Source: Candidatus Heimdallarchaeota archaeon (GTDB lineage Archaea > Asgardarchaeota > Heimdallarchaeia > Hodarchaeales > Hodarchaeaceae). Taken from it: a stretch of 64,000 nucleotides of DNA. Numbering within the stretch: the first letter of the stretch is position 1; each line of letters starts with the position of its first letter. The notes under the pieces are model-generated. The model was not told the DNA's origin, did no database searches, and saw only the letters and a list, made by a program, of their open reading frames with translations. Of the stretch, positions 30,429 through 33,166 are shown one piece after another. The DNA lies in the NCBI GenBank assembly GCA_020353515.1, contig CP070695.1:1170660-1234659 (forward strand). Reading direction: 5' to 3'. The position numbers and the translations under genes are program-made.

Positions 30429-31508
30429 TCACATTTCTTTGATAGCTAAGCTCAATTTCTCAAGTCCTTTCTCCAGTTCTTCGGTTTCTCCTCCAAAACC
30501 AAGACGGAAAAAATGATCCATTTTGAAACAATAACCTGGGACTGTGAAAGTTCGGTATTTCTCCACCAAAAGACGACAGAGCCTCTCTGAAGACTCATTA
30601 AATCGAGGAAAACAAGTAACACTACCCTTAGGAGGTATAAAACTGAGACGATCCTCATCCTCCATCCAATCAAAAACAATATTATAATTCTCCTTAATCC
30701 TCTGCATGATAGTTTTTAAGTGTCGATCTTTCTTTCGTAAAATTTGAAGTGCGATGGCCTCATTTAAAGCTGAATTACAGATTGTTGTCTGTTCCCTAAC
30801 TTTCAGGATGCCATCAATTATTGTTTTCTCTAGAGAAGCACTCCATCCGACGCGTATTCCAGGAAGACCGTAAACTTTGGACATTGTCGATACACTAATC
30901 ACATTAGAACTTAAATTGGCTGCAGGTGGCAAAACTTTCCCAAAGGTTAATTCACGATATGTTTCATCCAGTAATAAGTAAATATTTCGATCTTCAACAA
31001 TATCAATAATTTGTTTCAACTCTTCTATAGTTATGATTGATCCAGTTGGATTATTAGGGTGGGTTAAACATATAAGCTTTGTATTTGGTTTTATCATGTC
31101 CTCAAGCTTCTGAAAATTTGGTTTAAATCGCTCTTCAAAATCTAAAAAGAACAAATCCATTGATCGTTCCAAAGATTGTGGAATATACCAAAAAGAGGGA
31201 TAATTTGGACATTCTACTATAATATGGTCTTTCTTACTTGTTAAAGAAGCCATAATGGAAAAAATTGATTCCGCTGCTCCTGTTGTTACAGCAATATTAT
31301 CCCAACCTAATTTCTCATAAAAACTTGCAATCTGTGTTCTTAACTCAGGGTTTCCTAAATGATGAGTATATCGTAATTCAACCTCATTTAAATTCAAGTC
31401 TAATTCCCCAAGCTTTAGAAATTTAACTCCACTTTCTCCAATATCATAATCAACATCAAATTGGTATTTATCAAACCATTCTTCTAGAAGCATTCGTTTA
31501 AATGTCAT
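30429..31508 (-). CDS. PLP-dependent class I/II aminotransferase-fold enzyme
   Basis: IGESGV, PNNPTG, DETY, TMSKVYGLPGIRVGW, FRLGFG. ATG 31508 with GAGGT SD. Confidence 0.92.
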   Translation of the reverse strand: MTFKRMLLEEWFDKYQFDVDYDIGESGVKFLKLGELDLNLNEVELRYTHHLGNPELRTQIASFYEKLGWDNIAVTTGAAESIFSIMASLTSKKDHIIVECPNYPSFWYIPQSLERSMDLFFLDFEERFKPNFQKLEDMIKPNTKLICLTHPNNPTGSIITIEELKQIIDIVEDRNIYLLLDETYRELTFGKVLPPAANLSSNVISVSTMSKVYGLPGIRVGWSASLEKTIIDGILKVREQTTICNSALNEAIALQILRKKDRHLKTIMQRIKENYNIVFDWMEDEDRLSFIPPKGSVTCFPRFNESSERLCRLLVEKYRTFTVPGYCFKMDHFFRLGFGGETEELEKGLEKLSLAIKEM

Positions 31509-31657
31509 TGTACCTACCTCAGAAGAAATAACTGTGAAATATGTTGTTATTTGGAAATTAAGGTTTGTATCTAAAGTTTTAGGGTAGAACCTATATCTAG
31601 AAAAAAAAGGAGTAAAAACTGCCTGAGAATCCAAACTAGATCTATTGCGTTAAGGAT

Positions 31658-31670
31658 AAAGCTTTTAACC
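31658..31670 (+). promoter_or_regulatory. Putative archaeal BRE/TATA promoter for the structured leader
   Basis: Purine-rich element plus CTTTTAACC about 25 nt upstream of hairpin 1 (31696). Confidence 0.4.
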
Positions 31671-31695
31671 TCAAATAAAAGAAGCAAATATAGAT

Positions 31696-31861
31696 GGAGA
31701 ACCCAGGAATCTCCTTACGAAAACTAGGTGTGACACTATGAAACTTTCAATTGCCTCTATTATGTGGTGTATGGGCAATGGTATTATTGTCACACATCCC
31801 TATTTTAAATAAAAACCCAAGTCTCAACTTTTCCTGGGAGTTTGAGACAAAAGACGGAGGT
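31696..31861 (+). ncRNA. Candidate structured cis-regulatory RNA (three hairpins plus an 8-bp loop-loop pairing)
   Basis: GGAGA/TCTCC; GTGTGACA/TGTCACAC with inner ATTGCC/GGCAAT; GTCTCAA/TTGAGAC. Loop CCCAGGAA (31702-31709) is complementary to TTCCTGGG (31831-31838). Ends at a GGAGGT SD. Confidence 0.5.
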
Positions 31862-31871
31862 TTGCTCATAA

Positions 31872-31997
31872 ATGTTCTGTGAAACCTGTGGTACAGTGTT
31901 AAACGTAAATGGTTTATGTGTAAATTGTGACAAGAAACAAGACAAAAACATGAACACTGAAGGTCAGATAGAAGTAAAATTAGATATGACAGGATGA
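31872..31997 (+). CDS. 41-aa zinc-ribbon microprotein
   Basis: MFCETCGTVLNVNGLCVNCDKKQDKNMNTEGQIEVKLDMTG; two CxxC; GGAGGT SD at 31856-31861. Below the ORF-track cutoff. Confidence 0.75.
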   Translation: MFCETCGTVLNVNGLCVNCDKKQDKNMNTEGQIEVKLDMTG

Positions 31998-32006
31998 ATT
32001 AATAGC

Positions 32007-32234
32007 ATGAAGAATGATTCACGATTTTGTTCTGTATGTGATAAGCTCCTATTAAAACGAGATCGATCTGGATTCGTTTTAGTAATACGCTGTGATCAAT
32101 GTAAGAAATTAATACATGAACGATGTTATTTGAATCATCATTTAGAATGTCATAATCTAATTGGCATTGTAATAGAATCTGAGGTTAAAAAAGAGCTTAA
32201 TTCTTTTACTGACGATATAGGTAATATTGGTTGA
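32007..32234 (+). CDS. 75-aa zinc-finger protein, PHD/C1-like ligand pattern
   Basis: CSVC-x17-CDQC-x4-H-x2-C followed by HHLECH; starts 9 bp after the microprotein. Confidence 0.7.
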   Translation: MKNDSRFCSVCDKLLLKRDRSGFVLVIRCDQCKKLIHERCYLNHHLECHNLIGIVIESEVKKELNSFTDDIGNIG

Positions 32235-32296
32235 TTATCATCCCAAGCTATTTTCCTCAAAAATAGACTTAAGATTGATCAAAAACATGTAAGCAT

Positions 32297-33166
32297 GTGT
32301 CAGTAATTCATATTCTATTTTCGCTATGTGCCATTATAGTCGCTTATTTCATTCTAACGTACAGTATTACTTTTCTATTGGCGAATGTTCCAAGAAGATC
32401 AGTGAATGATGTACCTGATTGGGGAATAGTTAATGATATTCGAATTCCTACAGTTGAAGGGAAGAAATTAGAATGTTGGGTAGTTTACCCTAAAGAAAAT
32501 GCCAATAAGAACAATCCTGCTATAATATTAATACACGGGTGGGGAAGAAACAGGGGACGAATGGTTTCGAGGGCTAGGAACTATGGTAGGCATGGATACA
32601 CAACTATTTTGTTCTCAGTAAGGGATCATGGCAATTCTGACAAAGAGCTTACTGGAATGAGTATTTTAAAATTCAGTCAAGATTTAAATTCCTGTGTAAA
32701 TTGGTGGGGAAAACCTGTGATAGTAAATGGCCATTCAATCGGTGCTGGGGCCTCAATAATTGTAGCAGCGCAAAATTCCTTAGTGAAAGGGGTAATAGCA
32801 GAATCTCCTCCATACGCTTTTCTTCATAGCCTTAAATATGTATATAAACCTATCTTGAAGTGGACTACTCCTTTTTTTTTACCAGGTATTAAACTAATTG
32901 CTTTTGTTAAGTTTAGAAATCATTCCAAACAGGAATTTTCCCCGCTTGATGCTGCCTCACTTATAACAGTCCCAACTCTGTTGATACATGGAAAAGAGGA
33001 TGAAATTTTGCCATATGAGCTTACATATCATTTACAAAAAGAAATCTCACAGAGTCAGATGTGGACTCCTAATGGAATCGATCATTACAACATTGAAGAA
33101 CATCCTGAATACAATAATCGAGTTATTAGTTTCATTGAATCTAACTTTGGTTCAAAAAAACATTAA
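32297..33166 (+). CDS. Membrane-anchored alpha/beta hydrolase
   Basis: N-terminal TM, IHGW, GHSIG nucleophile elbow, IHGKEDEI, DH. Confidence 0.9.
   Translation: MSVIHILFSLCAIIVAYFILTYSITFLLANVPRRSVNDVPDWGIVNDIRIPTVEGKKLECWVVYPKENANKNNPAIILIHGWGRNRGRMVSRARNYGRHGYTTILFSVRDHGNSDKELTGMSILKFSQDLNSCVNWWGKPVIVNGHSIGAGASIIVAAQNSLVKGVIAESPPYAFLHSLKYVYKPILKWTTPFFLPGIKLIAFVKFRNHSKQEFSPLDAASLITVPTLLIHGKEDEILPYELTYHLQKEISQSQMWTPNGIDHYNIEEHPEYNNRVISFIESNFGSKKH

Follow-up and report, generated by a model that had tools for sequence, protein, structure and literature searches.

A predicted structured mRNA leader with an interlocked small ORF upstream of zinc-finger microprotein genes in a genus of Hodarchaeales

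The stretch of DNA analysed here (the window, 64 kb in length) was found to contain, between positions 31696 and 31861 on the plus strand, what is most likely a structured mRNA leader of ~165 nt that represents a new form of leader-ORF control, judging from comparison of its sequence with those of its relatives. The leader combines three hairpins, a predicted long-range contact between two of their loops, and an upstream small ORF (uORF) whose codons form part of one of the helices. On balance it probably acts in cis, with translation of the uORF setting the fold of the RNA and hence the translation of the zinc-finger microprotein operon that follows. In the literature searched, no such leader element was described for Asgard archaea and no archaeal precedent was found.

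The leader is preceded by a promoter block (31646..31668, plus strand) in which a TGCR motif (31646-49) is followed by an A-rich stretch similar to a BRE and then by a TATA box with the sequence TTTTAA (31663-68). The TATA box is situated 27 nt 5' of the first hairpin, HP1, and bears out the TATA-like box that the first-pass annotation had placed before the element. The promoter block is kept 5' of most copies of the leader in related genomes, with the 20–27 nt separating it from HP1 being variable. Based on the spacing of TATA box and TSS in archaea, the TSS is predicted to lie at ~31690-31696, at the foot of HP1. It should also be noted that the TGCR motif (31646-49 and the homologous positions in other copies) is conserved ~13–17 nt 5' of the BRE/TATA block and may be a transcription-factor site. 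On the minus strand, the longest ORF call for a class I/II aminotransferase (30429-31634) begins at a TTG within the shared intergenic region. An ATG at 31509-11 (MTFKRM...) is the more likely start of this gene over the TTG, and with this start a divergent promoter region of ~185 nt remains.

The distribution of the leader was determined by comparing the host genome (one contig, 4.94 Mb, G+C ~35%) with 21 other genomes of the same GTDB genus (Hodarchaeales, Asgard archaea). Using blastn, the element was detected in 14 of these genomes and nowhere outside the genus, while a covariance model trained on 16 copies located it in 17 of the 21. The model found one copy in the window's own genome, and a motif scan of that genome for further copies returned chance-level near-matches only, besides the element itself. 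A covariance-model search of 62 other genomes of the class yielded no copies. Two weak matches to the model, L049 (E = 0.2) and L068 (39 bits), showed neither the ORF nor the fold and were put down to chance. Exact-pattern matches in public genomes were to Candidatus Hodarchaeota, Hodarchaeum mangrovi and Heimdallarchaeota MAGs, and seven metagenome contigs supplied further variants. The final alignment comprised 24 distinct copies, aligned to the covariance model. An Rfam 15 scan of the whole window at gathering thresholds gave no matches, which agrees with the earlier impression of an undescribed family. When E values of up to 5 were admitted for 31600-31950, a single match appeared, to a nematode snoRNA model; it lies on the opposite strand and, at 15 bits, is attributed to chance. 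The leader most likely represents a new RNA family, restricted to one genus among the class genomes searched.

All three hairpins proposed by the first-pass annotation were found in place when the sequence of 31300-32500 was read directly. The 5'-terminal hairpin HP1 (31696..31714, plus strand) has a 5-bp stem and a 9-nt loop carrying CCAGGA at 31703-08, and it folds in all 23 full-length copies with stems of 5–11 bp. These stems covary, for example GGAGA/UCUCC against GACAAAAG/CUUUUGUC, and their orientation is constant in every clade, with a purine-rich, SD-like 5' arm and a pyrimidine-rich 3' arm. The long hairpin, or P2 domain (31728..31795, plus strand), is formed by an outer helix pairing 31728-35 with 31788-95, extended by AUGA:UUAU pairs, and by an inner pair of strands which in the window reads ATTGCC/GGCAAT. 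P2 closes in 24/24 copies, its outer helices are 93–100% paired, and its 5' strand shows a compensatory G:C to A:U change in three copies; its inner hairpin differs among copies in both sequence and length. HP3 (31821..31848, plus strand) has a 7-bp stem and a loop with UCCUGG at 31832-37. It folds in all copies, and five of its seven pairs have been changed on both sides. In some clades, the stems of HP1 and HP3 have been swapped wholesale. P2 and HP3 are joined by a fixed linker of 25 nt (31796..31820, plus strand), which holds the last codons of the uORF, a run of four U residues, the stop codon and then an 8-nt spacer to HP3. This linker is nearly indel-free, with one 1-nt gap in two copies.

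Homologues were collected and covariation was tested, as had been suggested along with the first description of the element, and the fold was found to be kept in the 24 copies. Standard pairs occupied 85% of the pair cells, compared to 40–48% with the partners slid by one to three columns, and double changes were present at 20 of 40 pairs, a number matched by 0/500 shuffles. Conservation and covariation looked the same in a MAFFT alignment of 16 copies. The folding energy of the single sequence was ordinary (z = −1.0 for the plus strand and −0.4 for the minus strand), so that the case for the fold rests on the comparison with relatives. Conservation in relatives supports the finding, while the thermodynamics of the single sequence is neutral towards it.

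The strand asymmetry of the fold bears on a DNA-level explanation, in which the two CCWGG-containing inverted repeats would be operators for a transcription factor. The repeats are quasi-palindromic, and the first follows closely on the predicted TSS, where archaeal repressors typically bind. However, the plus strand folds more stably than the reverse complement for HP1 in 19/23 copies, for HP3 in 18/23 and for P2 in 20/24, with P2 having a mean energy of −17.3 kcal/mol against −14.4 kcal/mol for its reverse complement. G:U pairs are also frequent, numbering 41 in the HP1 and HP3 stems. Both observations argue against an inverted repeat acting as DNA, as do the stems keeping their pairing by way of G:U intermediates and the flanking arms covarying for complementarity and not for sequence. 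The operator explanation was therefore regarded as extremely unlikely.

The octamer in the HP3 loop (31831-38) is the exact reverse complement of that in the HP1 loop (31702-09, plus strand), just as the first-pass annotation had it, and the chance of an 8-mer complement between loops of such sizes was estimated at ~2e-4. This kissing pairing extends over 7–12 contiguous bp in 24/24 copies, never falling below seven, and the helix is 93% paired across copies. The two cores of 6 nt (CCAGGA and UCCUGG) show no or almost no variation, the few departing cells being ones in which the model alignment is shifted by one base. Given that a core which does not vary cannot covary, the evidence for pairing rests on the flanking positions. 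At one flank, C:G was found in six copies, U:G in five and U:A in three, the last being a double change; at the other, A:U was found in 14 copies, G:U in two and, as a double change, U:A in one. In the close relatives L056 and L046 a pair has been lost at one end and gained at the other. Compensating flank changes were also seen in G017, among other examples, and in the divergent clade of G001 and G016 the duplex has moved by one to two positions. RNAalifold, which does not model pseudoknots, chose the long-range loop-loop helix together with P2 as the consensus. A loop-loop contact is thus likely, as a predicted pairing.

Within the P2 domain begins a small ORF (31738..31812, plus strand) which the first-pass annotation had left unremarked. 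Its ATG is at 31738-40 and is followed, to make 24 codons in all, by a reading frame ending in TAA at 31810-12. An SD-like sequence, AGGUG/GUGAU (SD1, with AGGUG at 31726-30), is situated 7 nt 5' of the ATG, and SD1 together with the uORF start (31726..31741, plus strand) forms the 5' strand of P2. The long central hairpin described earlier is real, but it is not purely structural, as it holds this conserved small ORF with an SD of its own. Across the copies, GUGUGAY is kept 9–10 nt 5' of the uORF ATG; the distance is 7 nt in L054, which carries an additional in-frame ATG.

The uORF is open in 24/24 copies with a length of 20–26 codons. It ends in TAA in 18 copies, TGA in four and TAG in two, with all of these stops at one alignment column. 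The two other frames across the region contain 0–4 stops, and the chance that a random 23-codon frame of such base composition stays open is ~0.17. The uORF ATG and the conserved 3' strand of P2 are separated by 13 to 20 codons, and among clades this distance varies by −15, −3, +3 and +6 nt, in each case by whole codons. At the other end, the stop codon is located 7–8 nt 5' of the HP3 base in every copy and 18–19 nt from the HP3 loop motif in 24/24. No frame was consistently open across copies on the minus strand of the leader.

The N-terminal half of the predicted peptide is variable in sequence, and its length differs by up to six codons. Its C-terminus follows the pattern I-I-V-T-x-x-x-F-x, with Phe at −2 unchanged in all copies and with Thr and I-I-V close to invariant, and a Trp is present in 23/24 copies. 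The pN/pS of the uORF was ~0.54 (12 pairs). The UUUU at 31803-06 is invariant, with the codon preceding Phe ending in U whichever amino acid it encodes, and codons 16–19 (I-I-V-T) make up the 3' strand of P2, where they pair with SD1 and AUG1. As these codons double as a P2 strand and the U4 run is invariant, part of the peptide conservation represents constraint at the nucleotide level. The combination of strict ORF integrity and loose peptide constraint fits an ORF which looks translated and for which translation matters more than the product.

These same features were weighed for a reading in which the uORF is a functional microprotein gene, the first cistron of a three-microprotein operon, and the hairpins stabilise or process the mRNA, for instance by protecting its 5' end. 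This was considered unlikely. Conservation of the C-terminal motif and the Trp and a pN/pS below 1 would be expected of such a gene, and a copy of the leader in G015 (see below) keeps the ORF, the hairpins and the loop complement without the downstream genes. Yet the N-terminal half is free to change and to vary in length, the P2 pairing accounts for the invariant synonymous sites, and the strict spacing from stop to HP3 is left unexplained by a product-based function. Moreover, an mRNA stabiliser would have no need for loops that are invariant and complementary to one another.

Two further roles for the ORF were rejected. The first was stop-codon readthrough or frameshifting to give a fusion with the downstream gene. 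The extensions beyond the stop are 1–17 codons in most copies, being longer in L043 (36 codons) and L041 (44 codons), their frame relative to the next start is inconsistent, and no conserved extended product was found beyond the uORF stop. The second was a type I toxin mRNA similar to hok. The peptides, at 20–26 aa, have no membrane-spanning stretch and several of their N-terminal halves are hydrophilic; the check for a hok-like antisense was limited to ORF and stop counts on the minus strand.

The leader ends at a second SD (SD2, GGAGGU at 31856-61), with the ATG of a zinc-ribbon ORF 10 nt further on at 31872, and the SD noted at this end of the element by the first-pass annotation is thereby confirmed (SD2 and zinc-ribbon start, 31856..31874, plus strand). 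The GGAGG of SD2 is kept in 23/24 copies. The spacer between HP3 and SD2 varies from 7 to 29 nt, in contrast to the fixed distance between the uORF stop and HP3. In L061 (from G021), a 22-nt insert with a small hairpin and a T5 run is present between HP3 and SD2; in that species, the insert could partly terminate transcription before the zinc-ribbon gene is reached.

SD2 has a candidate alternative partner in 31707-14, which includes the 3' arm of HP1. In the window sequence, the nested MFE structure pairs 31707-14 with 31856-63, masking SD2, at −43.2 kcal/mol. The three-hairpin state has an energy of −38.8 kcal/mol, to which the kissing duplex would add about −13 kcal/mol, so that the SD2-masked and three-hairpin states are close in energy. 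In 14/24 copies, no upstream segment paired better with the SD2 region than the 3' half of HP1. Cognate pairing of the HP1 arm with SD2 averaged −8.7 kcal/mol against −8.05 kcal/mol for non-cognate combinations (permutation p ~0.03, a value that ignores relatedness), and in some copies the pairing is weak, at −3 to −6.5 kcal/mol. That the HP1 3' arm might instead pair with the SD, as raised by the first-pass annotation, is accordingly graded as plausible on these sequences: the count of best partners speaks for it, while the cognate pairing is barely better than the non-cognate and weak in several copies.

A conserved 5' leader that is structured and may adopt an SD-masking alternative fold would also be expected of a metabolite-binding riboswitch, and the element had initially been described as riboswitch-like. 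This description did not hold up well. There is no conserved junction or internal-loop core that could correspond to a binding site, the interior of P2 being variable as noted above, and invariance among unpaired bases is confined to the pair of complementary loops, the SDs and the U4 run. The region also contains a reading frame, and no Rfam family is matched even under the relaxed E value. A riboswitch was thus deemed very unlikely.

The genes proposed to be regulated (31872..32234, plus strand) are two ORFs for small proteins. The zinc-ribbon ORF (31872-31997, plus strand) encodes 41 aa with the pattern CxxCG...CxxC and has a strong SD. It is the next gene in 22/24 copies, in support of the earlier statement that the element lies upstream of zinc-finger microproteins; of the other two copies, L046 is truncated at its end and G015 is without the gene. 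Across loci, the zinc-ribbon ORF is 39–48 aa long, with its N-terminus conserved in 22/24 loci, and the protein may resemble the small C(P)XCG zinc-finger proteins of haloarchaea. It is usually followed by an unannotated C1/PHD-like ORF (32007-32234, plus strand) of 75 aa with Cys and His residues, which matched Pfam C1_1 (phorbol-ester/DAG-type) with 28.7 bits against a cut-off of 26.5 and gave a weak match to PHD. This second ORF was found in this genus only, in 14/21 genomes and the window's own, and always beside the leader and the zinc-ribbon gene.

Two genomes depart from this arrangement. In G015 (L058, 1501-1760) the leader is an intact orphan with no zinc-ribbon gene and with the gene for tyrosine-tRNA ligase (TyrRS) directly downstream; its ORF, its two hairpins and a loop complement of 10 bp are all retained. 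Its uORF has four Tyr codons, compared to one or two elsewhere, a count which is a post-hoc observation. A 5-codon mini-ORF was also seen here, overlapping the GTG start of the tyrosine-tRNA ligase. G010 has two copies of the leader (L067, 1501-1690, and L057), ~31.6 kb apart on one contig. In the second of these the Trp codon is gone, SD2 is degenerate and a remnant of the zinc-ribbon start survives; a gene for isoleucine-tRNA ligase lies downstream of it.

The contexts in G015 and G010 prompted the consideration of an amino-acid-sensing attenuator for aminoacyl-tRNA synthetases, which was set aside. The tyrosine-tRNA ligase of G015 retains the proximal upstream sequence of the leaderless TyrRS in the window's own genome and so probably has its own promoter, which argues against such an attenuator. 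The degenerate SD2 and the zinc-ribbon remnant of the second G010 copy argue in the same direction. The intact orphan in G015 hints at a function of the leader of its own. Together, the two exceptions indicate that the core can persist alone, and this keeps alive both the functional-microprotein explanation and that of a small RNA.

In the latter explanation, the element would be a stand-alone or dual-function small RNA with its hairpin loops serving as seeds for pairing in trans with other RNAs. In addition to the orphan in G015 and the degenerate second copy in G010, it would accommodate a core which is rigid and self-contained from HP1 to HP3, with everything 3' of HP3 being flexible. It was nonetheless judged improbable, since most copies have no T-run terminator after HP3, SD2 and the zinc-ribbon start codon follow within 25–50 nt, and the loops complement each other with covarying flanks in an element present once in the genome. 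The stand-alone ncRNA offered as one option by the first-pass annotation is for these reasons, and with the zinc-ribbon gene coming next in nearly all copies, less likely than a leader.

For a cis-acting leader controlled by translation of its uORF, the following course of events is envisaged. The transcript would start at HP1, and in the ground state the loop-loop contact would lock HP1, P2 and HP3 into a compact fold. In this locked fold, the 3' arm of HP1 would be held by its own SD-like 5' arm, leaving SD2 free. A ribosome initiating on the uORF would open P2, in which SD1 and AUG1 are buried against codons 16–19, and would reach the 3' end of the uORF. A ribosome with a stop codon in its A site extends ~12 nt downstream, as known from footprints. 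Given this reach and a stop codon 7–8 nt before HP3, the leading edge of the terminating ribosome is expected at the HP3 base. There it would break the loop-loop lock and the leader would re-partition, so that SD2 might either be taken up by the HP1 3' arm or serve for re-initiation. The downstream output would be governed both by whether the uORF is translated or terminated at all and by how slowly this happens. Candidate signals for such a switch would include arrest by the nascent peptide, the supply of charged tRNA, temperature or a protein. This specific switch, with a terminating ribosome breaking the lock and the HP1 arm set against SD2, is inferred and much less certain than control in cis by uORF translation as such. 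A further suggestion, less likely than not, is that ribosome pausing at I-I-V-T-x3-F-x-stop would be the sensor which breaks the lock, so that the uORF would exert its control by way of the nascent peptide or of termination.

Among the closest known systems, the leader resembles bacterial attenuators and eukaryotic regulatory uORFs in outline, with only some of the defining features of each being present. As in the bacterial leader-peptide attenuators of ermC/ermB, cat and cmlA, the regulated gene is preceded by a short leader ORF that has an SD of its own, the helices include codons of the leader ORF, an alternative between anti-SD and SD2 is possible, and control is predicted here to follow the position of the ribosome in the leader ORF. 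In contrast to these, the leader-ORF codons have their own SD and AUG as pairing partners instead of a segment by which SD2 would be freed, the ORF lies between the two ends of a predicted long-range loop-loop contact, and the host is an Asgard archaeon.

A group of conserved-peptide uORFs in eukaryotes stall ribosomes at termination, and examples are the fungal arginine attenuator peptide, CMV gp48 uORF2 and the plant CPuORFs. The uORF studied here is similar to these in its 20–26 codons, in having the C-terminal part as the most conserved and the N-terminus variable, and in the seeming functional importance of the position of the stop codon. It differs in that initiation is SD-based and does not involve scanning, and in that a strong RNA structure overlaps the ORF. 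Relative to CPuORFs, the conserved codons double as a helix strand, with conservation of peptide and of structure being confounded as a result.

Kissing-loop contacts are found in the purine riboswitch (L2-L3), in ColE1 RNA I/II and in the HIV-1 DIS. The likeness of the leader to these lies in two hairpin loops that are Watson-Crick complementary over 6–8 nt, a feature retained among relatives. Unlike the known cases, the loops are ~120 nt apart with a translated-looking domain between them and no ligand pocket, and the pairing is a predicted one. Stimulators of stop-codon readthrough include the MuLV type, in which a structure lies 8 nt after the stop. Here too, a stable structure engaged in a predicted pseudoknot-like contact starts 8 nt after a stop codon, but the read-through frame is mostly 1–17 codons long and inconsistent in phase.

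The cis-regulatory RNAs known from archaea are few, and the literature searched yielded none for Asgard archaea. The restriction of the element to one genus limits its general reach. Within that genus it offers a long-range loop-loop contact supported by covariation and a conserved uORF interlocked with RNA structure, the logic of both bacterial attenuators and eukaryotic regulatory uORFs. It is also tied to unannotated zinc-finger microproteins, one of them with a ligand pattern of the eukaryotic C1/PHD type. At ~165 nt, the element is compact and suits the study of how SD-dependent archaeal ribosomes meet uORFs and structured leaders. If the pausing reading were true, the leader would be the first archaeal case of uORF-dependent control through the nascent peptide or termination, and it would place a CPuORF-style mechanism in the archaeal order reported to be closest to eukaryotes.
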